Notes: generated by a model not told the origin, from the sequence alone. Shown: positions 4,461 through 56,103, numbered from the stretch's first letter. The stretch: DNA of 64,000 nt from Bdellovibrionota bacterium (GCA_965207455.1 CBDBMJ010000001.1:1760001-1824000); one strand, 5' to 3'. A program made the numbers and translations.

Positions 4461-4749
4461 ACGCTGCCAGCAACCCCGGCCCCAGCCTGATGTCCAAAGT
4501 GTTGTGTGTCTTTTTGAAATGTTGTATGTCTTCTCAAAATACACGCAAAGCACAAATCATGTAATTTCAACAAGTTGAGCCTATCGCACAACACCGAACC
4601 GACGAACTCGGCTGGATAATTCGTATATAAGCTTGCCAGAGCACACCGTCGTTTCTTTCTGATTTGTCATCGTTACAAGCCATGTTTACTCATTTCCATT
4701 CTGTTCAAGACAAAGCTACTTCGTCCCCCTGATTACAGCCCATTCATAG

Positions 4750-5070
4750 CTTGGATCCTGGGGAGCATTCGTGCCCTTGCCAAGAGCCCACTTCTGCATC
4801 TATCCTGATTAGTAGTTAAGGTTTTAGCGTACGAGTTCAGTTTTGTTCCCTTCGACGACGACGCCTGTTTTATAGCTTCTTAAGATTTCCTAGTTGAGCT
4901 TTCACACAGGTGAAGTTGCATAGTTTCATTGTTTTTTTTGCTGGATAAAATTTTCATTCCACTGGCCAGCCTCTGCGGATCATTTCTTGCTTGGCTCCTG
5001 AGAATCATTTCGACACTCCTCAAGGAACACACCGACGATTCATCACCTCCTTATTGGATTCCCGCTGTAA
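4750..5070. repeat. Composite boundary repeat (type B core + linker + type A core)
   Basis: Two cores joined by tcccttcgacgacg..tatagcttcttaagatttcctag linker; similar at 5800-6033, 16383-16645, 23380-23745, 36415-36701, 51330-51533. Confidence 0.9.
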
Positions 5071-5078
5071 TTTTCCCT

Positions 5079-5531
5079 TTATAAGCTCCATCTTTCGTAA
5101 CAGTTTTGCGACTTGAATTCTTCCTCAATCCTTGAATCTTCCATGAAGCTATCAACATAGTTAAGTCTATTGAATTGATAGAGGTAGTAGGGGGTAGTAG
5201 GGCTTGTGGTGAATGTAATTCCTGTGGAGTTGAGCCAATTCTTACAAGTGAAGGAGAGTGGTAGGGTATGTTTGTTGTTTGTTGGCCATGCTATATTGCA
5301 GTTGTTATATTCTTCAATTTCGGCGTTTACAAAAGTTAGAGGCAATACTTTTATATTGCCATACTGTGGTTTTGAGGTGTCGTAGGTGATTTCAAACTTA
5401 CTGTGGGTGAATTCTCCATTCCAGCCGCAGGTAAACTGTAGAGTTTTCATTTCGCTGTGTGCGGAGGCAAGATTTGGGGATAGGGTTACTATTAGGCAGC
5501 CTAGTATTATTATATTTTTTACGTTTTTCAC
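5079..5531 (-). CDS. Secreted hypothetical protein
   Basis: N-terminal signal-peptide-like segment ending ASA; cysteines. Confidence 0.65.
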   Translation of the reverse strand: MKNVKNIIILGCLIVTLSPNLASAHSEMKTLQFTCGWNGEFTHSKFEITYDTSKPQYGNIKVLPLTFVNAEIEEYNNCNIAWPTNNKHTLPLSFTCKNWLNSTGITFTTSPTTPYYLYQFNRLNYVDSFMEDSRIEEEFKSQNCYERWSL

Positions 5532-5799
5532 AATTATATCCTTTTTGTTATTAGGTTAAGAAGTGCAGCATGCGACCTCTTGATTATGGGTTCCTTATAG
5601 CTACCTTCCCCTTAGTTGTCAGGGCCCTCTAGTTACGCATCGAACAAACTGAGTTATTGAGGAGTAGTTTGGGCATTTTGAGGTATTTCTGTGTGATTAG
5701 GGTATGGGGGGGCATTTATTTGGTTGGGGTGGGGCATTTGTGAGTTTCAGGAGGTATTTTTGCATTATTTTTGACAGGGGTTATTATTTTGGGAGTGAG

Positions 5800-6033
5800 T
5801 TTTGTTTTGTTCCCTTCGACGGCGACGGTTGTTTTATAGTTTCTTAAGATTTCCTAGGTGAGTTTTCACTCGGTTAAGGTTGGATAGTTTCATTGTTTTT
5901 TTTGCTGGATAAGATTTTATTCCGATCGCCGGCCTTTTCGGGTCATTTCTTGTTTGGATCCTGAGTATCATTTCGACAGATTCCAAGGAACACACCGACG
6001 ATTCATCACCTTACTTATTGGATTTCCGCTGTG
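5800..6033. repeat. Boundary repeat (linker + type A core)
   Basis: Aligns to 4840-5070; ends 14 bp from the mazG-like stop. Confidence 0.9.
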
Positions 6034-6047: not shown

Positions 6048-7172
6048 TTAAAGGGACTGTTTATTTTTTGGAAGAATATCATTCACTTCTTTTGTAAATT
6101 CCATTGTTCGCTTTTCAGCATCAATGCTAAGAACTCCTATTACTCCTGATTGTTTATCTTTTTCTACTTCTTGATAAGCATCTCTCAATTCTCTAAAAAT
6201 ACGAAAACCTTCCATAATAGTATTTTCCCACTCCTTAAATCCAACATCTTTTACTTCTAGTTCGCTTGTTAAATTTCTTACAAATTTCAACATATCATAT
6301 TCTATGCGAACCATTCCTTCTAAAAAATCATTCCGCTTCGCATAGTTAAATATCTGAAGGGAAATAGCTTCTTCTCGAATTATAGCTCTTGCTCCATCTT
6401 CATTCTTATCTGTAGTAGAACTGTTCTTACGCTTAACTTTTAGAAGACTTCTCAGGACAGGGGACCAGCCTAAAAAAGTAACATAAGACCAATGAAACAC
6501 ATCATGAAACCTGTAATAATCGGGTGATTCATTATTATCATCCACTAGGTCACCTAGATTCATGTCATTCATCTGCATTAAAATTTTATTATCAGTCGAT
6601 TTAATGAATTTAATTTCTGCTTTTCTGGGAAGCCGTTGATAGCGTGGGGAATCTTTATCACGAAAATAACCTTCATCTCTAGGATCTTCCCAACGAGATT
6701 TATTCTTAGCAAGGTTGTCAGAAAACAATTCTTCTTTATTAAGCTTATTTTTCTTCAGTATAAAGAAAATTATTTTTAAAATTTTTTTTATTCTTTCCTT
6801 TAAAAAATCTTTCTTTCTTAAATTACCTCTTTCTTTTAATATTTCAACAGAAATCTGGAGTAATTTATAAATGACTTCTAAATCATTTTCCGTGGTGCTT
6901 GCATCTTCTTGGTTAATAAAATCATCATTTAATTCAATGTTATTCAAGAATGCCAAAGCGGCTGTATACCACAAAGCATCGCCTAACTCCTCAAGAAGAG
7001 ATTCTTTATATTCTTTTATTTCTAGTGAATCTCTTTTTGCTCTTTTATATATACTGGCAAGCGAGCCTATCTCACCACAAAGGCCTAAAAGTACAATCTC
7101 CAGTTTTTTCTCTTCGGTAAGTCCTGTGAGTAATGTTTTTGTCGCTTCCCTTTGATATTCTTTAAGGTTCAT
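6048..7172 (-). CDS. MazG-like NTP pyrophosphatase with MazG C-terminal domain
   Basis: LGLCGEIGSL, EELGDALWY; C-terminal GDLVDDN...YRFHDVFH...WSPVLRSLLK.KRK...EDGARA..EE. Confidence 0.85.
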   Translation of the reverse strand: MNLKEYQREATKTLLTGLTEEKKLEIVLLGLCGEIGSLASIYKRAKRDSLEIKEYKESLLEELGDALWYTAALAFLNNIELNDDFINQEDASTTENDLEVIYKLLQISVEILKERGNLRKKDFLKERIKKILKIIFFILKKNKLNKEELFSDNLAKNKSRWEDPRDEGYFRDKDSPRYQRLPRKAEIKFIKSTDNKILMQMNDMNLGDLVDDNNESPDYYRFHDVFHWSYVTFLGWSPVLRSLLKVKRKNSSTTDKNEDGARAIIREEAISLQIFNYAKRNDFLEGMVRIEYDMLKFVRNLTSELEVKDVGFKEWENTIMEGFRIFRELRDAYQEVEKDKQSGVIGVLSIDAEKRTMEFTKEVNDILPKNKQSL

Positions 7173-7846
7173 TTCTGTAGGTAGGATGATTGACAGGGTT
7201 TTTCCCAATTAATTGGAAAGCCGTGAATTCCCCCGGTAATCTTTCTCTTCTTAAATAATTTTTCCAGCAATCCTATTAGCCTTTCAGCTTCCTTGCCTTC
7301 AAAATTTTTATGACGGATATCTTCTACATCCCTTGCAAATTTCCTAGATATCTGTCCCAAGGCAATTCTCTTTTCCTTGCCAAAATAGTAAAATTCTTTT
7401 GAAATCAGCACATGATGAGACTTTGTATCTACCTTTAAATTTCCTTGGTGAGTCCTTCCATTTTTTCTACTATGGCTTGAATTAGCTTGGTGCCACTTGC
7501 CATCCTTGTGGTACACATTGTCACCATACATGATTTTTTGGCTTCCCGCCTCATTTGGCTTTTTACATTGAAACCTTGAATCGCTCCAATACTTGTTAAA
7601 TATCAGCCTCTCACTAACTCGCATCGCATAAATTAAAGAACCTCTATTTTTCAATGCCTTGCTTCCCAATCCTAGTACCCAGTCTCCAGCCTCAGCATGC
7701 TGTCTTATACTCGACTTACAAGTGGCTAAAGTACAGAATCCATGAAATGGATTAGGAGCAAAACCAAAGTCTTTTGTAACTATGTATGTAAAAATTTTTA
7801 TCGACCCGTTTAACGTAAGGCTTTCTTTTTTTTCTTTCTTTGACAT
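7169..7846 (-). CDS. Nucleotide-modification-associated domain 2 (Nmad2)-like protein
   Basis: YIVTKDFGFAPNPFHGFCTLATCK..IR; GDNVY; VLISKEFYYFG. Confidence 0.8.
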   Translation of the reverse strand: MSKKEKKESLTLNGSIKIFTYIVTKDFGFAPNPFHGFCTLATCKSSIRQHAEAGDWVLGLGSKALKNRGSLIYAMRVSERLIFNKYWSDSRFQCKKPNEAGSQKIMYGDNVYHKDGKWHQANSSHSRKNGRTHQGNLKVDTKSHHVLISKEFYYFGKEKRIALGQISRKFARDVEDIRHKNFEGKEAERLIGLLEKLFKKRKITGGIHGFPINWEKPCQSSYLQK

Positions 7847-8316
7847 AAGACCCTCTTCATTTTCTTTGAACTATCAGTATTTTCAAGCCTTTCCGAGCCA
7901 TCAGGATTACAAAAAATCTTCTTGTCATTTATAGCTTTAATGATTTTTCTAGGATCCCAATCAATAATAGCATCTGCATGGTCCTCTATGCCAGAGGGAA
8001 GTGGAACGTCTAATTTTTTTAAAAAAACTCCGATAATTTTTTTCCCTTCTTTCGAGGCATGCTCTATTTCCCAGTTAACAAATTTTCGCCTATGCGTTTC
8101 TGGTCCAATTAGGCGTATTACCGCGCTCGCTCGCTCCATTTTTTTAGAAATGTAACCCTCATGAGATGCATTATTTTCTTTTCCGATATCGATTGGGTAG
8201 CTCTTTAGTTTCCAGCCCGTGGACGCTTTAATAATTTCCTTCAGCCTCCCTATATATTTTTTATCACCCTTGTAATAACTAATAAAAACATATTTTTCTT
8301 TTTGTTTCTTTTTCAT
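7810..8316 (-). CDS. TIR-like (MTH538/DUF1863, ThsB-like) protein
   Basis: VFISY, LIGPETH.RKFVNWEIEHA..GKKIIGV; conserved Glu retained. Confidence 0.8.
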   Translation of the reverse strand: MKKKQKEKYVFISYYKGDKKYIGRLKEIIKASTGWKLKSYPIDIGKENNASHEGYISKKMERASAVIRLIGPETHRRKFVNWEIEHASKEGKKIIGVFLKKLDVPLPSGIEDHADAIIDWDPRKIIKAINDKKIFCNPDGSERLENTDSSKKMKRVLCQRKKKKKALR

Positions 8317-8675
8317 TCTTTAATCAAACCTAACGCACCAAGTGCTCATATTCCCCTTCTTGGCTATATATTATAAGCCCACAAATATTTTTTGTCTATA
8401 TAACAATATTTGAGGCCACAAGAAGAGTTGCGCCTTTAATAAATAAGATGACTATTATTGCTAAAACTAGACCTGCACCCGTGCTGCATGGTTACTTCCT
8501 AAATCAAGAAAAACCATTCCGACACCTCTTCGATGATGTGCGGAAAAAATCAAATACTGATTTTTCAATGCTACCACCATCAGAAAAATCTAGTTGGCTT
8601 TGTACTTGTTTTTCAAAAATTCTTATATTTTTCTATCTCATCCCTTTGATTATAGTAATAATTTGCCTTTACTAT

Positions 8676-9662
8676 TTAAATTAAATTATTTTCTAAAGTA
8701 CATAATTTCCATTTTGGCGGATACCACTGTGGGATTTCACCAGAACATTTATTGTACTTTTGCTTTATTTTAACTCTATTTACTTTCCCTAAAATATTTG
8801 GGTGAGCAACTCTAGAGTATTTATCAACTTCACAAAATAAATTCTGACAATCAATAAGCTGAGGTTCTCTACCCCAGAGATATTGAAAAGACAGACCTAA
8901 ACGTGAAAATTCTTTCTCTGAGCGAGTTGCCATCTCTGAAATTATCTCCTCATCAGTTAACCCACCAGTATTTGAAAAGCATTTTCTTATCCCATTTATA
9001 GCACCAGGACCCGCAACCACATAATCCATTTCAGAAAAATTTATAAGTTCACTATAGTTAAAATCAATTGCAAATTGAAAAGCAAGAAATTTTCCTAAAG
9101 ATGGATAGGAAAGAAGTAATTTATATACCTCCATTAATGATTTTGTTTTTAATAATTTCCTTGTAAAGGAACCACTCAACATATATTCTATCAATTTCAA
9201 GTGATTCTGATACTTTTTTAGCAAATCAAAGCCGGGAGATGGCATAATATAAGCCGCAGAATAAATGGGTTTTTTATTTTTTATTTGTATTTCTAAAGCT
9301 TTAGAGTATTTTTCAAATGAATACGCTTTCCATGTTATGTCTCCAGAATAACTCTGTATATTTTCCCATGTGCTAATTTTATTAAATATCTTGAATAAAA
9401 GAATTCTAAATACAACATCTTCTTCTTTTTGAGAGCCAGAATAGATTACATTTTTAATTAGATACTGACTAACCCTGTCCGATGCTCTATACACATTTGT
9501 AAAGCGATGGTTTTTAATTATAGGATCATTTGTCCATGGTGGAATAATTCCCTTTACTCTCTTCATGAAAATATTTTGTCTTTCAACAGCAAACCTCCAG
9601 TATGTATCAAAAACTAATGTGGTTTTTAGAAAGATACCTTTTGCAGTTTTAATTTTTCTCAT
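8676..9662 (-). CDS. 5-hmdU DNA kinase / aGPT-pyrophosphorylase clade 1-like protein
   Basis: YWRFAVERQ.IF..R....PPWT.DPI...RFTNVYRASDRVSQYLI; AGPGA; LIDCQNLFCEVDKY. Confidence 0.8.
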   Translation of the reverse strand: MRKIKTAKGIFLKTTLVFDTYWRFAVERQNIFMKRVKGIIPPWTNDPIIKNHRFTNVYRASDRVSQYLIKNVIYSGSQKEEDVVFRILLFKIFNKISTWENIQSYSGDITWKAYSFEKYSKALEIQIKNKKPIYSAAYIMPSPGFDLLKKYQNHLKLIEYMLSGSFTRKLLKTKSLMEVYKLLLSYPSLGKFLAFQFAIDFNYSELINFSEMDYVVAGPGAINGIRKCFSNTGGLTDEEIISEMATRSEKEFSRLGLSFQYLWGREPQLIDCQNLFCEVDKYSRVAHPNILGKVNRVKIKQKYNKCSGEIPQWYPPKWKLCTLENNLI

Positions 9663-9663
9663 A

Positions 9664-9864
9664 TTACCTCCTGTTTTTCTTTTTCCCATTGTTTAATTCA
9701 CTCACATAATCATCTAGCGCTTGTAAAACCACCTGAGTAAGAGGCCAGCCCTTACTCTCTGCGATGTCTTCCATGCCTTCCACTAATTTTCTATGAATTC
9801 GAAATGCCTTCATTTCTGTATTCCCTGTACAGTAATTTCTATTTGGAAGTGCCTGCTTCTTCAT
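9664..9864 (-). CDS. Small ribbon-helix-helix-like regulator
   Basis: AFRIHRKLVEGMEDIAESKGWPLTQVVLQALDDY pattern; directly upstream of the kinase gene. Confidence 0.55.
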   Translation of the reverse strand: MKKQALPNRNYCTGNTEMKAFRIHRKLVEGMEDIAESKGWPLTQVVLQALDDYVSELNNGKKKNRR

Positions 9865-10234
9865 CTGTCATACATTGTATTACAATTATTACACGGTTTC
9901 AATAAATATTTTTCCTCACAGACCGAGGTAGCTATAAAAGTTTCTAAATCAATTGCCATTTCTCAAAGTAAGAGCGTTCCAAGATGACCGGGAGTAAGTT
10001 GAGAATAAAGGCTACAAAACAAAAAAACAGTATAACGTGTGCGCTCCTTAGATCTCAAATAAGAACCCCCCAAAATAAATAATAGTTATTTTGTAAAATT
10101 ATCTATTTTAGCTTATAACCAAGAGTAGAGTGTTATTTGTTATATAGTTAGAATCTTATTTATAAGAAAATGCCGACCATCTCTTAATGGCACTCGTGAG
10201 AGGCTTGCGCCGGGATTAATTCAGGAGTTTTACG

Positions 10235-10597
10235 ATGGGCAATAATGAACCTTATTTGCTGGATCCACGCAATGAAGCTGAGGCATTCATCCAAAAGCAA
10301 ATAAAAATTGGAGAAGAGCTTAAGGGTAGAGCAATAAACGATAAGCCTGCACTCAGGCAGCTTTTAGATGACTTTAATGCTTGGGATGATTATAATCATG
10401 ACCTCTTACAGGAATTATTTTCAAATAAATCCGAGGCAACGAAATATGATGATGGCGATCGTGATGAAGGTGTATTTCGCCCTGGAAATTCGTATAAAAG
10501 CCTATCCCATGAGATAGACTGTGTGAGAAAAGATATTGATAAAAAAATAAGACTACTTCGATCAGTAGAAAAAAGACTCGATTCTTTTCAGCGCTAA
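10235..10597 (+). CDS. Hypothetical protein resembling the N-terminal helical domain of TIR-like nucleotide-binding proteins
   Basis: RBS aggag; QIKIGEEL...WDDYN.DLL.ELF...KIRLLRSV pattern. Confidence 0.55.
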   Translation: MGNNEPYLLDPRNEAEAFIQKQIKIGEELKGRAINDKPALRQLLDDFNAWDDYNHDLLQELFSNKSEATKYDDGDRDEGVFRPGNSYKSLSHEIDCVRKDIDKKIRLLRSVEKRLDSFQR

Positions 10598-10707
10598 GAA
10601 AAATAATTTATAATTACAACACCTCTTATTATTTGAGTAAAGCCTCATTTCTCATATCAACAACTCTTAATGACAAAACTACTTCTTTCAAAACAGCGAA
10701 ATACCTC

Positions 10708-11367
10708 CTAGCTCTCTGGTCGTATACAATTCAACTGCTCATCAGTAAGATCATCTCTATCTATAATGCTATTGGAACACTTCTGCATTTTAATCTCTCC
10801 ATAATTAGCTCTATGTTTGTCTGTATAGTAACCACCGTTTAAAGTTTTGCAGTTATTTAAAAGAAATAACTCCTGCACACCTCGATGACACCTCATTGTA
10901 TTTTTTGAAGTATTGAAGGGCTCATTAGAATATTCATATTTCAATTTAAAGTTCTGAGTATCTAAATATGCCATATTTGAGATTGACCTTGATTCATCTG
11001 TATACATTATAATACTAATTAATTGCCATGTTTGATGAATATGAACAACAAAAGAAAATGTAGTTCCTCCCTCTTGCCCCTTTTCAGCATAAGTTGACTC
11101 ACTCCTCCCGATCCATGTGCCTTCTAAATTAGGAGTTTTTGATAAAAATTTAATTTTCCAAAGGCATTCCGAATAAATATAGAGCAAAAAAGCGTAGATA
11201 GGCATAACCGAAGGAAGAGAAATAAACCAAGGGGATTCAATCTGTGCCATGACTGCTATATGATTAATAAACCATGCAAAAGCCAATGAAATTATAGCTA
11301 AAACTATGGGAACACTCACTCTTCTTCCTCCACCGCTTCCCTGTATATTTAAAGAATAATTGTGCAT
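10708..11367 (-). CDS. cap15: CBASS effector Cap15 (2TM + beta-barrel)
   Basis: Two TM helices, PNLEGTW.G..ES.Y, IHQTW..ISI, Y.Y.NEP, H.G, G.YYTD.R..YG. Confidence 0.85.
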   Translation of the reverse strand: MHNYSLNIQGSGGGRRVSVPIVLAIISLAFAWFINHIAVMAQIESPWFISLPSVMPIYAFLLYIYSECLWKIKFLSKTPNLEGTWIGRSESTYAEKGQEGGTTFSFVVHIHQTWQLISIIMYTDESRSISNMAYLDTQNFKLKYEYSNEPFNTSKNTMRCHRGVQELFLLNNCKTLNGGYYTDKHRANYGEIKMQKCSNSIIDRDDLTDEQLNCIRPES

Positions 11368-11378
11368 ATTGATTACCT

Positions 11379-11843
11379 CTATATTAAATCTAACTTCCTA
11401 TGCTTTCCATTGCTAACTGACCAACATCCGATGCTTTCAATGCCAACAATAATAAACAATAGAAAATCTTGCTCATAATGAGCACTTTTGTATATTTCCA
11501 GCCAGTTTTTTATATCTTGTTTAGATGGATTTGGAAATGGTTCTGGATGCGTATGCCATTCACCTAAATATATTTGAGTCCCATCAGATCCTTTCCATTT
11601 TTTATTTACAATATCTTGAGCTGGTTCTCTCTTTCTAAAAAACAAAAATCGTTTTCTAGTATCTACTCTAGCAGGTTTACTAGAAAAATCAATAACCACA
11701 TCACTGTTTGACTCAATTATTCGACCAATTAACAATCCCCCAGATTCTTTTGAACTGATTTTTCTCTGAACATAATGCTCGAAAGTATCTAATACCTCTT
11801 GCTTAATTTCAAGAATCCTCTGTTCTTCAATTTGAAATTTCAT
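11379..11843 (-). CDS. cap3: CBASS Cap3 JAB/MPN peptidase
   Basis: ESGGLLIG; YLGEWHTHPE..P.PS.QD JAMM motif. Confidence 0.9.
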   Translation of the reverse strand: MKFQIEEQRILEIKQEVLDTFEHYVQRKISSKESGGLLIGRIIESNSDVVIDFSSKPARVDTRKRFLFFRKREPAQDIVNKKWKGSDGTQIYLGEWHTHPEPFPNPSKQDIKNWLEIYKSAHYEQDFLLFIIVGIESIGCWSVSNGKHRKLDLI

Positions 11844-13561
11844 TCCATCTTTCCACATTTACTACAATTTAACGCCACAAAATCAGTTACATTTTTAATC
11901 TCTTCATCTTTAAAAAGTTTGGCACGCTTAGAAAATTCAAAACCTTCTGACAAAAAAATATCCCTTGTACCAAATGAGCTTCTTAAAAAATTCTCTTTTT
12001 TTCTATCAGCCAAAATGTCAATGGCACATCGAGATAAATCGATAGCCAGATTGATTGCATCTATATTAGTATGAGGTAAAAAATATCCACTACAGCCAGC
12101 ATGAACACGTCTCAGATTCTGATTAGGCATACTAAACATTGCTTGATTAGCTACAAACATCCCTTCATCCGAAGTATAAAGGCATTCAAGACACCCTTTT
12201 TTACTTCCAATATTGGACGATACAATATGGTGACCTAATCCCAAGGCTTCAACCCATCCAAAAAGTAAAGGTATATTGCTCGGAAAATTAGAGTTATTTT
12301 TTCTGTATAGATTTTCATCACCACTAACATCAATAACAAGATCAACTCCATTGAATTGACCTTTGATTTCTGAAAAAGCATTAATATTATGCGCGAAAAC
12401 TTCACCAATTGTATATTTTTCATCTAAAAAAACCTTAATTGCTTCTGCCTTATTTTGATTCAAAAATTTCATGCCCAAGTTATGTCTATGCAGATTTTCA
12501 TTTGTGAGTGTCTCTCTATCTAGAACATTTATTTTTCCTATACCAGAGGCACGCAAATAGTCTGCAAGAAACCCTCCAACAGAACCTATACCTATGATTA
12601 ATATCTCTTTATTATTCAGCATATTTGTTGCTCCTGAACGCTTTAATAAATAATCTGCATCAAACCTATTCAAAGAAATTCTTTCAATGAATTCATCGAT
12701 TACAAAATTAATCTCATGTTTAGCATTTACTTTATTAGCTCTAAATCCTTTGTTAACTTTTTTTCTATCATTAGAATGAGGAATTCCTACAGCATATAAC
12801 ACATAATAATCTTTAAAAGGAATCGAGAAAACAATGTAGATTGGCAGCTTCGAAGATTTTAAAAATTTAATAAAATCTTCATGCGACTCGTTACTAGAGT
12901 GATTTTTGATTATACTAATAATTTTTCCAACAGTAATTTCTTCTTTATACCTTGGTGGCTCAATTGCATTTAGCAAAGGACAATAATATGTATGTTTCTC
13001 TTCTTTATAATTTGTAGCTCCATATTTTTTCAAAAATACTACTAATTCGTTTTTATTTTCTGCAATTATAACACTTCTTTCAAGCGGTACTTTTTTTTCA
13101 TAGCTTGCCGCAAATAGCTCTCTGGGGATATTGTTCGATGTTACAAGTGAAATTGCATTTCCTTTGTGATCGGAACCTCTCCAATAAGCGTCAAATTCCG
13201 ATATCAATTCAATTTTTCTATCATCTGAAAAGCCTAGCTCTAAAATTTCAATTGCTTTCTTTAGCACAGTCTCCACTATATCGACAGGACGCGAAAAATC
13301 GATAACAGTTGTTCCATCCTGAAACAAGCAAATTTTTCCATCCTTCTCTACATGGGGAAGAAGCAATGAATGTTCTGAGCTGGGAATATAAACTGAAGGC
13401 AATTTATATGGAAATTGGTCCGGAAAACACAATGTTAGTTGCATCTGATTTCCTGAAATTTGATATTCTTTATTGAAGCTTTGACACTCTTTATTGGGAG
13501 ATTTCTTCGACTGTTTAAATTTTCTTTCCTTTAAAAAATTTAAAACAGCATTATCAATCAT
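11840..13561 (-). CDS. cap2: CBASS Cap2 E2-E1 (ThiF) fusion
   Basis: FPY..P, PHVE.DGKICL E2 domain; IGIGSVG, D.E.L..ENL.RH, CLEC ThiF. Confidence 0.9.
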   Translation of the reverse strand: MIDNAVLNFLKERKFKQSKKSPNKECQSFNKEYQISGNQMQLTLCFPDQFPYKLPSVYIPSSEHSLLLPHVEKDGKICLFQDGTTVIDFSRPVDIVETVLKKAIEILELGFSDDRKIELISEFDAYWRGSDHKGNAISLVTSNNIPRELFAASYEKKVPLERSVIIAENKNELVVFLKKYGATNYKEEKHTYYCPLLNAIEPPRYKEEITVGKIISIIKNHSSNESHEDFIKFLKSSKLPIYIVFSIPFKDYYVLYAVGIPHSNDRKKVNKGFRANKVNAKHEINFVIDEFIERISLNRFDADYLLKRSGATNMLNNKEILIIGIGSVGGFLADYLRASGIGKINVLDRETLTNENLHRHNLGMKFLNQNKAEAIKVFLDEKYTIGEVFAHNINAFSEIKGQFNGVDLVIDVSGDENLYRKNNSNFPSNIPLLFGWVEALGLGHHIVSSNIGSKKGCLECLYTSDEGMFVANQAMFSMPNQNLRRVHAGCSGYFLPHTNIDAINLAIDLSRCAIDILADRKKENFLRSSFGTRDIFLSEGFEFSKRAKLFKDEEIKNVTDFVALNCSKCGKME

Positions 13562-13565
13562 TTCT

Positions 13566-14558: not shown

Positions 14559-14586
14559 ACTGTATCCTCCATTTATTAGCCATTAC

Positions 14587-15747: not shown

Positions 15748-16382
15748 CCGCCCATACCCAGCACCACCAATCCCAGCCAAAAACCCATTCACTCCCTTTG
15801 TTACCGTTTCGTATTACAGCATTAGCAACCCCGGCCCCGGCACCCCAACCCGGCAGCATTAGCAATCACAGCAAAAATCGCCAGCATCAGCAATCCCGGC
15901 CCCAGCAATCAAGGCATCAACTTGGCACACCCAAGCCCCCCTGTTTCTTTCCTGCTTAGGTTAGTTGAGTTTATGAGGTGTTGTGTTGTATTTTGTTTTC
16001 TTTGTTGTTGTGTGGGAGGGTGCTCACTCCGACGCTCCCAACCCATTCACTTCCCCTATTACAGCACAAGCAATCCCGGCTCAGCATTAGCAACCCCGGC
16101 CCGGCGCTCAGGATCCCTCTCTTCCATCTGATTAGTGTTATAGAGGTTTTTCTTGTTATTCTTTGAGTTCATTAGGTTGGGTGTTGTCACGCAACAAGCC
16201 AAGTACAATCGTATAGTTATGATGGGTATTGAGGAGGGTTTGATTTCAGGGAGGGTGTTTTCTCGCTCCGGCCTTTCACTAAAGACAGTGTTACATCTTC
16301 TCACAGATTGAGTTAAGAGGAGGAGTTTTTTGATTAGTTGAGTGAGGTTCAATTCCGTTCATTAGAGTATGAGGGTTGCATA

Positions 16383-17906: not shown

Positions 17907-17923
17907 TGTCCGATAGCATGAAA

Positions 17924-46800: not shown

Positions 46801-47779
46801 AATTTTCCATAATATATTTCATCCCCTTGTGGCCACGATATGGACCTTGTTTTTTTTCCTTATTTAATGTTTTGCAATAAACTCTAAGGAACAAAGGATT
46901 GGCAAATTCTGTTGCCAGAGGAATCTCGCTATATTTTATTTTATAATGACTGAAATATTCTCTAACAGCAGACACAAGATTATTTTTAAATCCATGATGA
47001 GTCAATTTTATTATTTTATTTTCAACTCTTCTCAGGTCGAATAATGACTCATACGTTGAGCGACAACTCAGGCATACAGCAATCTTTTCGGATTTTGAAA
47101 TCTCATTAACAAAAGAAAAAAGCTCATCTATCCATATCGAAACATCAGGGCTTTCATTTATTGCATCGACTATCAACAACACCCTTTCCCCGGACTTTCT
47201 ACTCAGTCGTTCTATATAATTAAAAAAACTTTTTCTAGGATCCTGAGAGTGCAAATTTAAATTTTTACAAATATTTTTCCATATATTAGTAGATGAACTG
47301 AAATTTGTTCCAAATAATATAATTGCTGGCTTTTTTTCTTGCATTCTATTACTTGCAACATCACAAAGCAGATGCGTCTTCCCCTGGCCTGCCTCACCAT
47401 TAAGCCACAAAACATTTCTATTAAATAACAGGCTTTGATCATTTGATACATATTCTTTAGCCTCAAAAAATACATCAAGGTATTTGTTATAACAATGACG
47501 AAGATAACTCTTACTTTCATTTTCTTCTGACTCTGTAATATTCTGATGTATTTCCAATAAAATACTTTCATAATCTCTGAATAGATCTGAAATTTTCTCT
47601 ACAGGAAATTCATCTTTTTTCCCAATATTAAGCAGGATGAGAACTGTTGAATTATGTGAATTTTTCAGAGCGTTTAATCTACTCTGACTGATGTTATATT
47701 CTTCGTAACTTAGTCTTTTGACCGCCCTATCTTTTCCCAATTATTTCTGAAACCATCTCCTTATTATTAAGGAGGTAGT

Positions 47780-48127
47780 ATGGAAGAAGGAATTCAAGAA
47801 TTAGAGGTCAAGATTAGTTCTCATTTGATACGTTCAAAAAATAGCAAGGGTGTCCATTGGCCCAAAGAACTAAAGGAGGAACTCCTTGTTCTATTTAAAG
47901 AAAGCGGCCTCAGCATTCAAAACTTTTCTAGAAAGATGAAACTACCCAGGCCAACCTTGGGCTCGTGGATATGTGCTTTAGAAAAGAAAGAGAAACCTCA
48001 TTTTAAAAAAGTAAAAATTGGCTCTGAAGATAGAGGGTTTTATACCCTAAGGAGTTCCAAGGGCTATGAAGTGGATGAGTTAAGCTTTGAGGACTTATCT
48101 CGATTGCTAGATAGGGGGCTTATATGA
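47780..48127 (+). CDS. tnpA: IS66 TnpA (HTH)
   Basis: SGLSIQNFSRK..L...TL.SW; first IS66 ORF. Confidence 0.85.
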   Translation: MEEGIQELEVKISSHLIRSKNSKGVHWPKELKEELLVLFKESGLSIQNFSRKMKLPRPTLGSWICALEKKEKPHFKKVKIGSEDRGFYTLRSSKGYEVDELSFEDLSRLLDRGLI

Positions 48128-48468
48128 CTTTTTGGAATACTAAAGCTGAAATTTTTATTTATTCAAAAGAGATTGACATGAGGTGGGGCTTTGAGAGACT
48201 GTCCTATATTATTCGGGAGAAAATGGGCAAAGATATAAACTATGGGGATTTATTTTTATTTCTTGGTTTTAATAGGAAAAGACTAAAAGCGCTTACTTTT
48301 GACGGCAGTGGTCTGATTTTAATGTCTAAGAGATTAGAGAAAAAAAATTTTATGCTGGTATCTGATTTAATTTCCCACAAAATAACAAAGCAGGAATTGA
48401 AGTTTTTAGTACATGGATCTGTTCTAAGAAAGTATTTTCCAGATAAGAAAATTCTTAGAAAGAAATAA
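48124..48468 (+). CDS. tnpB: IS66 TnpB accessory protein
   Basis: DMRWGFERL, LFLF..NRKRLK.L.FDG.G..L..KRLE. Confidence 0.92.
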   Translation: MTFWNTKAEIFIYSKEIDMRWGFERLSYIIREKMGKDINYGDLFLFLGFNRKRLKALTFDGSGLILMSKRLEKKNFMLVSDLISHKITKQELKFLVHGSVLRKYFPDKKILRKK

Positions 48469-48524
48469 AATTATTTTCATTTTATCCTTTATAAAAAGTA
48501 AAAATTATTTTATCATATACATGT

Positions 48525-50087
48525 ATGGAGAATCTTCCTAGGATAGTTGAAAATGAAACAAACCCCGAACTCTTGAAGGGATATTTTAAAATTTCTTGGA
48601 ACGCTAGTTTATCGCTAGATAAAGAAAATAAAAGATTGCGGTCCGAGAACGCTGCTTTAATGAAAAAGAAAGTAGAAGAAGATCAGCAAAATCTTAAATT
48701 AGATAAAGACCTTGCGAACTTCAAAGAAACTTATGACAAATTGAATAGAATTTTTTTTGGAAAAAGTAGTGAAAAGCGTCCTTCTTCTAGGCAGAGAGAT
48801 ATGGAGAGGCAGCTCTCGCTTCAATCCGAAAGCCTAGCCCCTTCTCCTAAGTCAGAAGAAATGGATAGATTGGAAGAAGTTCAGGTTGATCACATGCTAA
48901 CAAAGGAAGAACTTGCTAAAATAGCAGAAGAATATGGCTACCCTAAAGATACGAAGTGGGAGTTTCTAAAAATTTTTGATGAATCAAACGAAGTGGGGAT
49001 AAGAGTTAAAAGTTTTATAAGAAAAAAGCACCGTCTTTCTAAATATCGTCTTATAGCTAGCAAGGGTACTGAAAAAGAAATTATCGTTACAGCATCTGGT
49101 CCTAAAAGAATAGTCCCTGGTTCTAAATACTCTCCTGATTTTGCTGTAGACGTTGTAGCGCAAAAATATCTCTATCATCTTCCCTTAGAAAGAATTAGGC
49201 GTATGATCGCCTCAAAAGGTTTGAGTATAGGTGTAAAGACTCTTTATTCCCTTTCCTTTTTTGTAAAAAGCCACCTAGAAGATGTGGCGCAGAGAATTCG
49301 ACAAGAGATTGGAGAATGCGGACTCATACTGCACATGGATGAGACTCCTTGGCCAATCAATAACTCTAAAGAGAAAAATGGGTATATGTGGACTGTGAGT
49401 AATCAAGGAGGAAGTTATTATAAGTTTGCTTCAACGAGGTCGGGGGCTATTGCCAAAGAGCTCTTAGGCTCCTATCGGGGGCCTGTGCTAACAGATGCGT
49501 ACCCAGGCTATAACGCCCATTTTAAATATATAAAAGGCGTAACACTTGCGCACTGTTGGGCCCATGCAAGAAGGAAGTTTACCGATATAGAGAAAAACTA
49601 CCCCGAGGAATGCGGTCAAGTCTTAGATTTACTTTCTGAACTTTTTGTTGTGGAGACAAAAGCGCAACACTACACCCATCTGTTAGAGCTAAGGCAGAGC
49701 AAATCAAAGAAAATAATAAACCAGCTTAGAGACTTGTTGTATGAACTAGCCCCTAAAACACGAGCAGAGAGCGAGTTACAAAAAGCCATTAACTATGTCC
49801 TTAAACATTGGAGTAATCTTGTGCTATTTCTAAATGATCCCAAAATTCCTCTAACAAATAATGAGGCAGAGAGAGCCATGCGCCACTGTGTTATGGGAAG
49901 AAAAAACTTTTACGGATCCAAAACAGCAAAAGGAGCAGAAACAGCGGCCATACTCTACACTGTCATAGAGAGCTGTAAAAAAGTGGAGCTTGACCCTAGA
50001 AACTATATCTCAATGGCCATTAAAAAAGTTCTCAATGGTGAAACTCCTCTAACACCTCTGCAATACGCCAAACATATCCGCTCTTAG
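48525..50087 (+). CDS. tnpC: IS66 TnpC DDE transposase
   Basis: FGKSSE, LHMDETP, TDAY.GY, CWAHARRKF, NNEAERAMR, GRKN. Confidence 0.95.
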   Translation: MENLPRIVENETNPELLKGYFKISWNASLSLDKENKRLRSENAALMKKKVEEDQQNLKLDKDLANFKETYDKLNRIFFGKSSEKRPSSRQRDMERQLSLQSESLAPSPKSEEMDRLEEVQVDHMLTKEELAKIAEEYGYPKDTKWEFLKIFDESNEVGIRVKSFIRKKHRLSKYRLIASKGTEKEIIVTASGPKRIVPGSKYSPDFAVDVVAQKYLYHLPLERIRRMIASKGLSIGVKTLYSLSFFVKSHLEDVAQRIRQEIGECGLILHMDETPWPINNSKEKNGYMWTVSNQGGSYYKFASTRSGAIAKELLGSYRGPVLTDAYPGYNAHFKYIKGVTLAHCWAHARRKFTDIEKNYPEECGQVLDLLSELFVVETKAQHYTHLLELRQSKSKKIINQLRDLLYELAPKTRAESELQKAINYVLKHWSNLVLFLNDPKIPLTNNEAERAMRHCVMGRKNFYGSKTAKGAETAAILYTVIESCKKVELDPRNYISMAIKKVLNGETPLTPLQYAKHIRS

Positions 50088-51329
50088 AGTACAAGGGCGG
50101 TCAAAAGACTAAGTTACTATTCTTCAGATGAAATTGTTTCATATACATCATCAAATTTATGTTGAAGCTTACCAGTACGTTTTAAAATTTCATCTTTATA
50201 CTTCTTGCTTCTCAGTAATGGCTCAAAATAGAATGAATATTCCGTTTCTATATTGACCTCTTGGTTGTACCTTGGACCGACAGAATCAATTCTTTTTTTA
50301 TTAAGCTTATATAATTCATTCAAATCACTCATTCAATCTCCAAATTAATCATATTGCTAGTGTCCATGACTCTCAAACACTTTCCCCGATATCTTCAAAA
50401 ATCTACCCTCTAACTACTTGACCCTAATCTTAGCCCAAAAATAGCTCTTTAGTCTTTTTCCAATTAGCCTACGGGTTGCTGTTGAGGCACCATGTTCGGC
50501 GCACTATTTGTTGTGTGGCTTTCATTTAGTTGAAAGAGTAAGACATCGACAACACACCAACCCCGACCAATCCCTACCCCCCCTTCACCCACATCAGGTT
50601 TATAAAGCCCGGCTGGGGGGGGGCACTGGCACTGTGATGAGAGCTACCGGCCCTCTAATGGGATTACCGGGCATTGATGGGAGCCACTGGCATTCTGATG
50701 AGGTCTACTAACGCAGGGGCATTGAAGTTTCTTGTTTAAGGGTTATTTAAGGGATTTGTAGTACAGGGTGTTTATACAGCAGCTCCGGTAGCAGCGACCT
50801 TGACCACCACACACTAATCCCAACCCGGTACCAGCATTAGCAATCCCGGCACCACCAGCACCAATCCCGGCGGCAACAACACCATCAGCAGCCCCGGCCC
50901 GGCCCGCCCCTCAACCCATTCCGGCCCCTAGAAGCCCGCAGTATTTCTTTGATCCATCACCGCCACAAGTCATGTTTATTTATTTCCTATTTGGATCCTA
51001 GGGGTCATTCCTCATACTTAGGAGTTGTAGTTCCATTTGATGGTATTTGGATATTAGGTTTCGTTTCATAGTAGTTGGAGTTCAATTTCAGGGTTTGAGG
51101 AGTTAGTATTGTTATTTTGGGTTTTGGGCGGTGTTATGTTTCCGCTACAAGTCAAGTTCAATCATTCGTTTTATGGGTATTGAGGGAGTTTAAATTTACG
51201 GAGGGCATCACTTTCTCGCTCCCACCTTTCACAAAGACAAAGTTACTTCTTCTCACTGATATGCCTAAGGGTGTGTGTTTGTTCTTTAGGGAGGTGTGGT
51301 TGTGTTTCTTTTATCAGGCTCTGTGGTTT

Positions 51330-51533
51330 CATTCTTGTTTGGATCCTGGGAATCATTCCGACACTCCCCAAGACCACACCCCCGCTTCTTTCCTGATTAG
51401 GAGTTAAGCGTTTAGCGTGTGTGGTTTGTTTTGGTCCCTTCGACGACTGTTTTATTGACTCCTCTCTGAGAATCATTTCGACATATCTCAAGGAACACAC
51501 TGACGATTCATAACCTTACTTATTGGATTCCCG
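51330..51533. repeat. Composite boundary repeat (B + A)
   Basis: Cores at ~51340 and ~51465. Confidence 0.9.
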
Positions 51534-53240: not shown

Positions 53241-53666
53241 TTAACCTTCAATTCTGACTCATGGCTTGATTTCCAAATTATAGCTCATTCGATTATTTCT
53301 TTATAAATAGATTTAATTCATTTTAAATCAACAACACTTCATCTATTTACTTTATAAACTAAAATAATTTATTTTTCACTATAATTCTATTAAGAAAATA
53401 GATTTTTCAGCAATACACTAAACTGTGTATAATGATCTTTCTCGAAAAAGACTTCTTTAACTTAGGATCATACTACCAAAACTGCCTCTATGAAACTAAG
53501 ATAAAATCACTGCAACCTACTCTTTTCACTGCCATTGCACTCTAAGAGTAGATATGCTTGGCGTATTGCCGGGGTGTTAGAGGAATTTAGTGGTATTTAT
53601 AATATTTAAATTTATCGTTTGATCTTTCTGATGTACCTCAAGAGCACACCCTCGATTCTTTCCGGC

Positions 53667-53891
53667 TTAGTAGTCAAATTTATAAACGCACCAGTTATTG
53701 TTTTCGTTTCTCTCGCTACCAGCACCAGGGAAACACTCATACTGTTGAGCAAGAACATTCTCTGCTGCTTGAGCAACAACTTTTGATTTATAATAGCCTA
53801 AGATGACCCAATTTTTAAGGTTTGGGTACTGTTTTTCCCAGTATTCTTTGCGACCTTTCGGATCAGTTGTCATGCCTACTCTACAAGCCAT
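53667..53891 (-). CDS. Small 74-aa protein (GIY-YIG-like), directly downstream of the sulfatase
   Basis: MACRVGMTTDPKGRKEYW...AQAAE...VYKFDY; intact ATG; boundary-core fragment at 53620-53665. Confidence 0.7.
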   Translation of the reverse strand: MACRVGMTTDPKGRKEYWEKQYPNLKNWVILGYYKSKVVAQAAENVLAQQYECFPGAGSERNENNNWCVYKFDY

Positions 53892-53952
53892 ATTTAATCA
53901 TTTCCTTTCGACTCAAGTGATACAATATAACTGAACTTTCACGCAGACAAAA

Positions 53953-56103
53953 CTACTTCTTCCCACTGATTGCCCTTCGGGCAAGCGGTCTTTCTTTTGC
54001 CATATAAAGCGCACTTTGCCAAAGTGCTAGGGCTTTTTGGATCATTTCTTTTGCTTTTTTGGGGTAGAGGTGTTTTACGTCTTTATCATAATCTTTCGTT
54101 TTATAGCGATACAGGATCGCCAGATTGTCCTCTGGATTAAGAGCTGCCTCTAAATTATTAACATATTTATTTCTATTCCAATTATTAGTATTAAGCCTAA
54201 GCAAAAATTCTTGTCCAATTAATTTCACAAGCATATTTGTATGTATAAACATATAATCACTGTCTTTATACGATGAGTGCAAAATATTCCTTCCCAACAT
54301 GGTGTTTTCTGCAGATATACCCATCATACCAAGCATAATGGGCATAATATCTATACTGGAAGTTACCTCTTGCACAGTTTTTTGTTTTTTAAACCGGAAC
54401 TGAGGAGAATAAATAATCAATGGAACCTTTAAAAAAGAAAGGTTATGATATGTGAACCAATCAGGAACATGCTCGGCTCCTTTCAAACTTATCCCATGAT
54501 CACCCACTAATACAAAAACTGTTTTATTATAATCCTTTCGCTTCTTAAAATCTTCAAAAAATACTCGTAGGCTGTAATCAGCAAACCGCAAAGCATTAAG
54601 CTCCTCAATGGAAGAAAAGCCATTTTTTTCTAATGTTTTTTTATCTACATGAATCGACATAAAGCCTAAATTCTCTTTGGGAATAACATAAGGAGGATGG
54701 TGGCTCGCTCCTTCTAAAAAAGTGAGAAATGGTTTGTTTTGATTAATTTTTCCTGCTCCATGCTTTTCCTCAATAATACGCTGTACCTCCTTATATAAAT
54801 GGAAGTCAGAAACCCCCCAAGCATTTACTTCCGGGTATTTATAATTTTTTTTTTCAAGCAAGTGGATATTATCTATGTTTTTCACTGTTGTCTTGTAGTC
54901 TAACCAAGTGAAATCATGAGATCTAAAAAAATATTTTTCATGCTTTTTAAGGGAATTTGCTAGGCTTGGCAATGGATAAGAGGGAATTTCAAGAAATGGA
55001 ATGCTCGCTATTATGGAAAAAACACCATGAATACTAGATGGAGAGTAAACTGAAGCATGGAAATTTTCAAAAAATATGGCCTCTCTTCTTCGGATAAGTT
55101 CCTTCAAAAACGGAGTAGGATTTAGTGGATTTTTCAATGTCTTATAATCAGAATAAGATTCCAGAAAAATGAATACAATATTGGAATTGGGATCAAGATA
55201 AGGCGTCTTTCTTATGGGCCTTTTAAATAAATTGAGTATCTTTGCTAGATCTACAGACTCACCAGGTTCACCACCCTTTAGTGCTCTAGGATCAGGGGCT
55301 TTTAATTTAAGATGACCTTGGACTCCTGCAAATACTTTAAAGAAGTCACTAGGAAAAAAAGTAGCTTTTTCTTTTATTTTAGTGTCAAGTAAATGTTGAA
55401 AAGTATTAAAGCTCATGGGCAAATAAAATGGATCTTGCAATGAATAACTACGATAAGAATTAAACGGTCGCCTAACATCAATACCAATGACTCCTAAAAA
55501 TAAAAACTCCAAGCATAATATGGAATAAAGAGCCTTTCGCTTAGGTAAATAAGAAGTGGTTGTAATCCGATTAAACGACTGAAAACCAAACCTGTCAAAT
55601 AAACCCTTACCTGTAAATACAAGCCTCTTTAAAATAAAATATAAGAAACAGGAAAGGAGCAGCCACCCGAAAACAATCCATACTATAGGATAGGATTTTA
55701 TCACCATCGATAGAACAGCCAGTGGGCTTTTTAAGATGTAAATGCTATCATAACCCAATCTTTTCTCCGTATATCCGTATGTGCCAAAATCAATGAGAAA
55801 AAACAAAAATATGAACGAGAAAAGAAAGGTATGAAAAAACAGAACATTCTTATTGCTATAGATATATTTTTTAGGAAATAAATAATCTCGCCAGAAAAAA
55901 GCTAAGCACGGCATGGAAAATAGAAGACTCCAACGCAGATCAAATCTAGCACCATAGAATAAGCAGTTCAGCAATGCATTCTGATTGCGGAAAAGAGTGC
56001 TCAGATCAGCTGAAAAATAAAACAGCATAATAAAGCGAAAAACCTGCTGTACAAGAAAAAACAACAAGATAATTTTTATGCAGGAATACAACCTCATGTT
56101 CAT
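53953..56103 (-). CDS. LTA synthase family / sulfatase-like membrane protein
   Basis: Multi-TM N-terminus with G.RFD; NIVFIFLES, WGVSD, HHPPY, FADYSL..F, TVFVLVGDHG, VPLIIY, DIMP..LG. Confidence 0.9.
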   Translation of the reverse strand: MNMRLYSCIKIILLFFLVQQVFRFIMLFYFSADLSTLFRNQNALLNCLFYGARFDLRWSLLFSMPCLAFFWRDYLFPKKYIYSNKNVLFFHTFLFSFIFLFFLIDFGTYGYTEKRLGYDSIYILKSPLAVLSMVIKSYPIVWIVFGWLLLSCFLYFILKRLVFTGKGLFDRFGFQSFNRITTTSYLPKRKALYSILCLEFLFLGVIGIDVRRPFNSYRSYSLQDPFYLPMSFNTFQHLLDTKIKEKATFFPSDFFKVFAGVQGHLKLKAPDPRALKGGEPGESVDLAKILNLFKRPIRKTPYLDPNSNIVFIFLESYSDYKTLKNPLNPTPFLKELIRRREAIFFENFHASVYSPSSIHGVFSIIASIPFLEIPSYPLPSLANSLKKHEKYFFRSHDFTWLDYKTTVKNIDNIHLLEKKNYKYPEVNAWGVSDFHLYKEVQRIIEEKHGAGKINQNKPFLTFLEGASHHPPYVIPKENLGFMSIHVDKKTLEKNGFSSIEELNALRFADYSLRVFFEDFKKRKDYNKTVFVLVGDHGISLKGAEHVPDWFTYHNLSFLKVPLIIYSPQFRFKKQKTVQEVTSSIDIMPIMLGMMGISAENTMLGRNILHSSYKDSDYMFIHTNMLVKLIGQEFLLRLNTNNWNRNKYVNNLEAALNPEDNLAILYRYKTKDYDKDVKHLYPKKAKEMIQKALALWQSALYMAKERPLARRAISGKK

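Follow-up and report, generated by a model that had tools for sequence, protein, structure and literature searches.

We analysed a 64,000-nt stretch of the genome of a Bdellovibrionota bacterium (GCA_965207455.1; CBDBMJ010000001.1:1760001-1824000), hereafter the window (G000:C1:1760001-1824000), in which the 3' end of a gene for a membrane sulfatase-superfamily protein recurs through a long array of phage-defence genes. The genome comprises 2.38 Mb in three contigs with 40% GC. The intact gene, here called the anchor (Table 1), encodes a protein that matches Pfam Sulfatase (PF00884, E 1e-23) and ends ...RRAISGKK before the stop (fuller form ..ERPLARRAISGKK). Three distinct homologues are 75-80% identical to it (P0006, P0007 and P0008, one of them ending at residue ~610); the anchor open reading frame (ORF) is intact, and its C-terminus agrees with those of P0006 and P0007 (..ERPLAQRAISGKK). 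A preliminary description of the window had named the gene a lipoteichoic acid (LTA) synthase. This label is unsupported because the protein reaches 52.5 bits on the NCBIfam LtaS equivalog NF053595, against a cut-off of 970, and only the Pfam Sulfatase match holds; judged by its architecture, the anchor product is an LtaS/MdoB-like membrane enzyme of the sulfatase superfamily rather than a demonstrated LTA synthase. The host genome carries lipopolysaccharide-export genes (LptF/G), and a KdsA-like gene adjoins the array. The status of core gene, given in the same description, is likewise unproven, since a search of 40 relatives found no anchor orthologue (nothing above 32% identity). A scan of genome contigs with the sulfatase gave an Alistipes protein, 23% identical, as its sole match. 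P0006, P0007 and P0008 are each recorded on a single 91,490-bp contig, presumably the same ENA contig, and some relative may hold the anchor gene in several copies.

Eight copies of the gene end had been proposed within the array, and all eight are present. A blastn-short search of the window with positions 53900-54010 matched seven of them at E values from 3.5e-10 to 0.079: 41859-41905 (89% over 47 nt, E 3.5e-10), 32248-32281 (94% over 35, E 8.6e-8), 24049-24089 (85% over 41, E 3e-4), 4708-4734, 36313-36347 and 51226-51260 (E 0.005 each) and 42044-42072 (E 0.079). The remaining copy, at 16275-16310, had no match to this query and was recovered by profile. With the anchor alone as nhmmer query against both strands of the genome, six copies were found at E <= 0.0063 and one at E = 1, and an iterated profile returned exactly the eight sites and the anchor (E 8e-5 to 9e-18). 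All copies lie on the anchor's strand, as had been described, and the iterated search of both strands found none outside C1:1764707-1813997. A degenerate 24-nt core, allowing three mismatches or fewer, matched six sites in the window and none in any of 100 dinucleotide shuffles. The motif is thus neither matched in shuffled sequence nor spread through the genome, and a chance origin was rejected on the genome-wide profile search and the shuffles (0/100). A 26-nt core pattern had 0 matches in viral contigs. Left of the window, at L002 ~6790-6815, there is a ninth copy, degenerate in sequence, which reads RAISKKE and stop and is fused with a small gene of the kind described below. A 16/16-nt remnant at 10672-10687, behind the effector gene of a cyclic-oligonucleotide-based antiphage signalling system (CBASS), is a possible tenth copy that we have not counted.

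The repeated block is discrete, consisting of ~42 nt of coding sequence, the stop and ~20 nt of trailer (~62 bp). Local alignment places its limits at -42 and +19/20 relative to the stop in three copies (51 kb, 36 kb and 41.9 kb). In nhmmer alignments the 24-kb copy covers roughly the same interval (-42 to +19/20), and the 32-kb copy runs from -51 to +4. Upstream of -42 the copies carry unrelated sequence, in two cases with a 77-nt element directly abutting. Most preserve the frame and the position of the stop, ending in KEQTSALRAISEKK, KEQTHTLRHISEKK, ..RAISGKK, ..AISGKQ, ..LRAISEKK or RAISKKE. The copies are 64-86% identical to the anchor, with no trend by distance from it (Spearman rho 0.30, p 0.47, n=8). 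Two sequence types can be told apart, one formed by the 51-kb and 36-kb copies (which are identical) with those at 24 and 16 kb, and the other by the anchor with the 41.9-kb and 32-kb copies. The comparison of copies by distance that the preliminary description had proposed therefore yields two types and no gradient. A 6-bp inverted repeat within the anchor block (TTGCCC-GAA-GGGCAA) is not kept in the copies. At 42060-42320 (-), an 86-amino-acid (aa) ORF with a good Shine-Dalgarno sequence holds three to four degenerate tandem repeats (..S(A/T)RAIS(E/K).L..SR.VT..) and terminates in the 42.08-kb copy (..SVTGKK and stop); TRF reports a 30-nt unit in 2.2 copies at 42081-42145. At this site the core of the block (RAIS / VTGKK) is thus tandemly amplified as well. 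The 86-aa ORF matched no family.

The boundary repeat that the copies had been said to adjoin is a 77-nt element, which iterated nhmmer found in 22 copies, all on the (-) strand and all within C1:1746940-1813666. Every joint bears this element. At the joints between units, the element that we call type A follows the last gene of a module, 0-19 nt behind its stop at four joints and further away at others, and type B lies nearer the gene-end copy than type A. The gene-end copy is often followed by a 74-aa gene or its remnant, after which come ~700 nt of A/C-rich non-coding DNA. Parts of this backbone, taken from 35564..36310, recur at 15566-15786, 23016-23346, 16190-16489 and 51143-51445, and the ~200 nt directly upstream of the first cargo gene are common to two units (15566-15786 and 35549-35767, 82%). 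Promoter and terminator scans of two joints scored no better than shuffles. The 77-nt element was ruled out as a structured RNA or attC-like site, there being no consensus fold on either strand (RNAalifold on 12 full-length copies, -0.04 as RNA and 0.0 as DNA, no consensus stem). It was also considered as decayed upstream coding sequence of the sulfatase gene and rejected, with no nhmmer match in the last 448 nt (--max, E 100). Over the whole window Rfam gave no family at the gathering cut-off or at E <= 1, and no tRNA or tmRNA genes were found in it.

The 74-aa gene is the only coding part of the joint that is conserved. It is intact behind the anchor, behind the 24-kb copy and in a third copy left of the window, and remnants of it follow the gene-end copies at 42.08, 41.9, 4.7, 36 and 51 kb. 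Synonymous divergence (dS) between the three intact genes is 0.33-0.38 pairwise, with ratios of nonsynonymous to synonymous divergence (dN/dS) of 0.25-0.48, and by this comparison the gene is under purifying selection in 3 copies. A word search with the protein gave just 4 proteins, and the family counts given here rest on an exhaustive profile search, which found 374 representatives at E <= 1e-3 and 174 at E <= 1e-10. Members are mostly stand-alone proteins of ~75 aa with C3, R14, W18, Q41, E44 and C53 nearly invariant. Among 40 members searched with Pfam, six matched T5orf172 and five MUG113 (best E 1.9e-5), with no match for the first copy in the window. An AlphaFold2 model (pLDDT 88.7) has a beta-alpha-beta-alpha-beta topology. 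Foldseek with this model returned nothing at E <= 0.001, and the top row of VIA-align was the GIY-YIG domain of I-TevI, a weak likeness (Z 4.8, root-mean-square deviation 2.5, 54 aligned), with the UvrC GIY-YIG domain at Z 3.5. The protein lacks a DNA-binding extension. We treat it as the product of a GIY-YIG-like backbone gene, a tentative label given the weak likeness of the model.

Joint repeats extend overall from C1:1746940 to 1814006, and core genes (KdsA-like, RNase T, TPR, RodZ, LptF/G) run leftward from C1:~1743430, which together define an island of ~70 kb (70-73 kb) with almost all cargo on the (-) strand. The gene-end copies divide it into 9-10 units, those in the window measuring ~2.6-11.5 kb. 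The cargo consists largely of recognisable defence systems (Table 1); left of the window lie two more ABC-3C sets, Sel1 proteins, a second ShosA-like DprA and a second Lipase_3. The unannotated ORFs of the array gave nothing in Pfam, PHROGs or NCBIfam.

Several observations concern individual parts of this cargo. The alignment of the Avs2-like gene to the PADLOC Avs2 profile does not begin before profile position 236, and a 71-aa open frame at 50117..50332 (-), on the far side of the IS66-family insertion sequence (IS), may be its severed start. The IS66 copy is multicopy in the sequencing run (depth 99 vs 14). The left end of the IS21 insertion (17900-18115) has seven 24-nt tandem repeats, of which a lone 40-nt copy lies in another joint at 4421-4460; together with the resemblance of 1325-2011 to 4052-4632, this suggests an older IS21 end or a rearrangement near 4421-4460. 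In the stretch 6048-9689 a ThsB-type TIR gene stands among thymidine-hypermodification genes, namely HMUDK_hel (5-hydroxymethyldeoxyuridine DNA kinase), Nmad2 and MazG_C, a mix unusual for a chromosomal defence island. The CBASS operon (13566-15558) has two adjacent, different CD-NTase genes (PADLOC PDLC00795 and PDLC00801). On the other side of the sulfatase gene, an 872-nt segment with the genes for an ABC-2 permease and an A24 prepilin peptidase occurs twice (58976-59847 and 63135-64000, 96% identity); the two copies, ~4.1 kb apart, bracket a pentapeptide-repeat gene and a 289-aa ORF.

Table 1. Gene-end copies, joint elements, cargo and insertions, in window coordinates
Feature	Position	Strand	Basis
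Anchor gene, membrane sulfatase-superfamily protein, 716 aa	53953..56103	(-)	ORF call and Pfam
Anchor copy of block (last 14 codons, stop, ~20-nt trailer), proposed attachment (att) core	53934..53997	(-)	nhmmer
Gene-end copy, type I, KEQTHTLRHISEKK and stop, then ggagcgagaaag and decayed small-gene start	51224..51287	(-)	nhmmer, alignment
Gene-end copy ..SVTGKK and stop, then trailer and small-gene 5' remnant (41989-42042)	42043..42084	(-)	nhmmer
Gene-end copy ..RAISGKK and stop, internal stop, fused to small-gene codon 5 onward	41856..41918	(-)	nhmmer
Gene-end copy, type I, identical to 51-kb copy, inside 486-nt 97% duplicate	36311..36374	(-)	nhmmer
Gene-end copy, furthest into coding sequence (-51; AYMENEGSLA.., 1-nt deletion), directly behind Lipase_3 gene	32226..32305	(-)	
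Gene-end copy, type I, KEQTSALRAISEKK and stop, then intact small gene	24047..24109	(-)	nhmmer
Gene-end copy, most degenerate, type I flank	16272..16331	(-)	iterated profile only, E 4.6e-11
Gene-end copy, short, ..IRGTK and stop, then small-gene 5' remnant (4673-4726)	4707..4734	(-)	nhmmer
74-aa small gene (MACRVGMTTDP..), GIY-YIG/T5orf172-like, 62 nt behind anchor stop	53667..53891	(-)	
Second intact small gene, 76% aa identity	23747..23971	(-)	
Non-coding backbone, A/C-rich, ~750 nt, att-like copy to next cargo gene	35564..36310	(-)	
77-nt element, weak, directly behind small gene	53621..53666	(-)	nhmmer, E 3.6e-5
77-nt element, type A	51456..51531	(-)	nhmmer
77-nt element, type B	51335..51399	(-)	nhmmer
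77-nt element, abutting 41.9-kb gene-end copy	41917..41986	(-)	nhmmer
77-nt element, weak	41754..41803	(-)	nhmmer
77-nt element, type A	36617..36693	(-)	nhmmer
77-nt element, type B	36422..36486	(-)	nhmmer
77-nt element, type A, joint without gene-end copy, preceded by 81-nt MazG_C 3' remnant	30705..30774	(-)	
77-nt element, type A, joint without gene-end copy, behind Shosta	28612..28684	(-)	
77-nt element, type A, abutting 24-kb gene-end copy	24108..24184	(-)	
77-nt element, type B, behind small gene	23616..23680	(-)	
77-nt element, type B	23392..23452	(-)	
77-nt element, type A	16560..16636	(-)	
77-nt element, type B	16382..16446	(-)	
77-nt element, type A, 5 nt behind MazG_C stop	5950..6025	(-)	
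77-nt element, type A, directly behind 150-aa ORF	4987..5062	(-)	
77-nt element, type B	4747..4813	(-)	
77-nt element, type A, directly behind 329-aa ORF	2935..3009	(-)	
77-nt element, type A	1445..1520	(-)	
Cargo: Avs2-like STAND NTPase, 5' end abuts IS66	43952..47740	(-)	PADLOC Avs2, E 1.6e-264
Cargo: PDC-S06-like and PDC-S39-like genes	36793..41388	(-)	PADLOC
Cargo: PD-T7-4-like gene, 395-aa ORF, Lipase_3 protein	32320..35564	(-)	PADLOC/Pfam
Cargo: Shosta (ShosA/ShosT) and 1024-aa Ppl-like ABC/SMC ATPase	25061..30241	(-)	
Cargo: type II CBASS (two CD-NTases, E1-E2, JAB, Cap15-like 2TM effector), HMUDK_hel, ThsB-TIR, Nmad2, MazG_C	6048..15558	(-)	
Cargo: ABC-3C/PDC-M68A-like effector (-) and AbiEi (+)	292..2835	mixed	
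IS66-family insertion, three ORFs	47700..50117	(+)	Pfam; multicopy contig edges 47700, 50117
IS21-family insertion, inverted ends, 24-nt terminal repeats	17903..20476	(+)	Pfam

We also examined where the small gene occurs in other genomes. Of 400 other Bdellovibrionota genomes only one (G336) has a homologue. At the start of a defence island there, a tyrosine integrase and an HTH_17 excisionase-like gene precede it by 270 nt; the island carries restriction-modification (R-M) systems, AbiE, a type III R-M system and Thoeris. The last ~95 nt of this integrase gene recur 10 kb downstream (G336:C1:123742-123835 and 134096-134188; L027/L028), and the AbiE module of the island is flanked by ~340-nt direct repeats of 88-93% identity. 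A metagenome scan gave 79 loci; 34 with usable flanks were analysed, and 31 remained once the duplicates L057, L098 and L099 were dropped. Defence or mobile-element genes lie within two ORFs at 12-14 of the 31 (integrase, Piwi, TIR, R-M, M78-HTH and Replic_Relax), an integrase is directly upstream of the small gene at one (L056), and the small gene lies no more than 72 nt behind a co-oriented gene at seven. Five of the 31 have ~58-nt palindromic direct repeats flanking the small gene: at L076, L082, L086, L106 and L107 the homologue sits in a ~670-nt unit between direct copies of a ~58-nt imperfect palindrome (ATTCTGGGGACATAATACC..GGTATGGTGTCCCTGGAAT), with more copies of the palindrome nearby. 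This unit may be a small mobile cassette or reflect a context of the repetitive extragenic palindrome or miniature inverted-repeat transposable element (REP/MITE) kind. Such contexts associate the small gene with the margins of mobile or defence DNA and carry no implication for the role of its protein.

In the explanation that we consider rather probable, units were added one after another by site-specific integration (tandem accretion) at the 3' end of the anchor gene; they are now integrase-less and resemble cis-mobilizable elements (CIMEs). Small integrative elements would each have entered the terminal ~60 bp of the sulfatase gene through site-specific recombination and left a tandem array that is now fossil or semi-fossil. 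An incoming element would bring a gene end of its own (14 codons, stop and ~20 nt), and this new end would restore the gene as the previous end and the older elements were pushed further downstream. The shared backbone would comprise, on the gene-proximal side, the att core, the 74-aa gene and the A/C-rich leader with a promoter region and, on the distal side, one to three 77-nt elements as candidate arm sequences, with a phage-defence system as cargo between the two. The recombinase may have been lost by deletion between direct repeats or may always have acted in trans. Homologous recombination between backbones, the IS21 and IS66 insertions and reshuffling would have remodelled the array later.

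This reading is favoured by a block that is discrete, frame-preserving, of one orientation and confined to the locus, each copy being flanked by conserved sequence that does not belong to the target. The copies keep the frame and the stop as replacement ends carried on an attP would, and the intact anchor ORF with a C-terminus like those of its relatives counts for regeneration of the gene. A constant limit with unrelated sequence on its 5' side would not arise by simple segmental duplication of the gene end. The absence of a distance gradient, the two sequence types and the dS of 0.33-0.38 between small genes fit separate arrivals better than clock-like decay of duplicates made in place. Further support is provided by the order of integrase and then small gene in G336 and at L056, by the seven loci where the small gene closely follows a co-oriented gene, by the defence and mobile-element neighbours of the family, and by the close precedents discussed below. 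The preliminary description had proposed that the array grew by repeated integration or duplication at the gene terminus, and had likened this to tRNA-end duplication with a protein-coding gene as the anchor. The analogy fits the discreteness of the block, its frame and its confinement; growth by integration is consistent with these and with units of 2.6-11.5 kb, but it is weakened by the absence of an integrase and has to share the field with duplication in situ.

Several searches that bear on integration gave negative results, and those within the array and the genome weigh against it. Genome scans with PF00589 (nine genes) and PF00239 (one gene) placed none of these 10 recombinase genes in the ~73-kb array, and tblastn with 11 recombinases (the 10 of this genome and the G336 integrase) at E <= 5, run to find remnants and covering the ~1-kb non-coding joints, gave chance-level matches only. 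A decayed integrase in the 329-aa ORF at 3027..4016 was considered and rejected (best tblastn E 0.079, unsupported by Pfam, PHROGs and NCBIfam). The closest tyrosine recombinase gene lies ~21 kb past the left core flank; a tyrosine recombinase locus at C1:1722 kb was inspected and showed no link to the array. A 597-aa serine recombinase is encoded at C1:103 kb. No matching attP-like copy was found by nhmmer elsewhere in the genome, including beside the 10 recombinase genes, and no terminal attR at the left core flank (the kdsA-like gene). The leftmost ~13 kb have 77-nt elements and no gene-end copy, and five joints in the window carry a type A element only. The same-family genome G001 offers no empty site, as its contig ends 271 nt before the pilin-like gene that neighbours the sulfatase gene; unrelated polysaccharide genes adjoin its kdsA orthologue. 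Joint DNA compared with 400 genomes of the phylum gave only chance-level matches of 25-52 nt. Short Logan contigs of one run, searched with 36001-56000, held no reliable excision product or alternative joint: the joints listed had sides of less than 31 nt or were paralogous, and the record marked 'goes back' was the paralogous 24-kb joint. Since the array yielded no integrase, resolvase or remnant of either, and the genome no second att-like copy, we infer integration, together with the direction of growth and the roles given to the 77-nt elements and the small gene, from the arrangement of the repeats.

Duplications within the array add to these difficulties and keep alive the proposal that it grew in place, the joint module being multiplied by unequal crossing-over or slippage and the cargo swapped by homologous recombination at the joints. 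At two joints 486 nt are 97% identical (36064-36547 and 50976-51460), an 81-nt 3' remnant of MazG_C is duplicated together with a type A element (5984-6129 and 30733-30878, 88%), and 1325-2011 matches 4052-4632. The MazG_C remnant at 30795-30878 (corresponding to 6048-6129) sits behind an unrelated 412-aa ORF, and the duplicate is a footprint of deletion or recombination between joints. The 22 direct 77-nt repeats offer ample homology, and the lack of a recombinase in the array would be expected. Judging from these duplicates, homologous recombination within the array has clearly acted as well, and recombination in place makes joints too, so that duplication in place with homology-driven exchange of cargo stays a rival. 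As the account of the whole array we nevertheless think it unlikely: the 5' limit of the block is constant (-42/-41) across sequence types with unrelated sequence abutting, the copies keep frame and stop, no gradient of identity with distance is seen and the intact small genes differ by a dS of ~0.35, and the origin of the first short gene-end repeat is left unexplained.

In a dedicated capture platform, comparable to an integron, a recombinase or nuclease encoded outside the cassettes would insert them, or the 74-aa protein would assist in their insertion. Such a platform would account for the lack of a recombinase in all 9-10 or more units and for a small gene that is the one conserved coding part of the joint, under purifying selection in three copies; the small-gene family occurs in variable or defence regions of other phyla, with palindromic repeats at 5/31 loci, and the genome encodes outside the array, at C1:778 kb, 1229 kb and 1722 kb, three tyrosine recombinases that share ~40% identity with the island integrase of G336. 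No recombinase adjoins the array, however, the 77-nt elements have no conserved fold and so differ from attC, the cassettes are multi-gene with ~1 kb of leader, and the protein has a weak GIY-YIG likeness (VIA Z 4.8) and no DNA-binding extension. We regard this alternative as improbable, and slightly more so its form in which the platform is still live and takes up integrase-less defence cassettes composed of a 62-bp gene end, 77-nt arms and the 74-aa protein by means of a recombinase or nuclease acting in trans; if true, it would be a gene-end-anchored functional analogue of the integron for multi-gene defence systems. Finally, the copies could be silent alternative C-termini of the sulfatase or regulatory modules (terminator or leader) of it or of cargo genes, unrelated to mobility. 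Preservation of the frame and the 6-bp inverted repeat of the anchor block agree with this idea, but the copies are all direct with no invertase present, the inverted repeat is lost from them, there is no terminator-like T-run and only 14 residues would vary; we consider it very improbable.

If serial integration is the correct reading, one protein-gene terminus has gathered at least a dozen recognisable defence systems through a single attachment site, by units that are unusually minimal, having no recombinase and ~1.2 kb of non-coding backbone in common. It would also extend tandem accretion to a new phylum, in an uncultured predatory lineage, and to a new kind of target gene. The 62-bp site, the 77-nt element and the small conserved protein would then be defined candidates for roles in the assembly or exchange of defence islands, and new defence genes may reasonably be sought among the unannotated ORFs that lie between known systems in the cargo.

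Growth of islands by stacked integration is already known, and what would be new here is the target gene and the phylum. In staphylococci, staphylococcal chromosome cassettes (SCC) attach at the 3' end of the protein-coding gene rlmH (orfX), direct repeats of ~15-18 bp separate the stacked elements of composite SCCmec, and pseudo-SCC elements lack recombinase genes; the SCC recombinases are the Ccr serine recombinases and the cargo is resistance genes. ICESt1-type elements target the 3' end of fda. Chromosomal integrons resemble the present array in being long, in one orientation and built of recombinase-less cassettes with a repeated site and defence cargo; they differ in that no intI lies beside this array and no attC-like hairpin is present here, and in that the cassettes here are multi-gene with long leaders and the repeated site is a gene-end copy. 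Tycheposons of Prochlorococcus (bioRxiv 10.1101/2020.12.28.424599) target tRNA genes and retain fragmented integrases. They share with our array successive integrations at one site that push older elements inward, leaving partial target copies scattered in the island, whereas here no fragmented integrases were found and the target is not a tRNA gene.

The structure of the array agrees at almost every point with that of the ssrA islands of Dehalococcoides (McMurdie et al. 2011, PMC3146451). In those islands, direct repeats of the target 3' end bound tandem units, over a dozen of them occur within 100 kb, each has beside it a conserved motif that is absent from ssrA, and integrase-less units are interpreted as CIMEs. 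There, the target is tmRNA with a 20-bp repeat, 16 islands keep a serine-recombinase integration module and the cargo is dehalogenases, whereas the array described here targets a protein gene, with a ~62-bp block that restores 14 codons, carries defence systems and lacks a recombinase in every unit. The scheme of CIMEs and accretion is known from att sites of the ICESt1/ICESt3 type in streptococci (Pavlovic 2004 and Bellanger 2011, as cited in PMC5704250), where integrase-less elements that retain their att sites are likewise stacked at the end of a protein gene. Those arrays, as that source presents them, have two or three members and a known integrase of an integrative and conjugative element (ICE); the array described here, in another phylum, is unusually long, with 9-10 or more units, and uniformly integrase-less.

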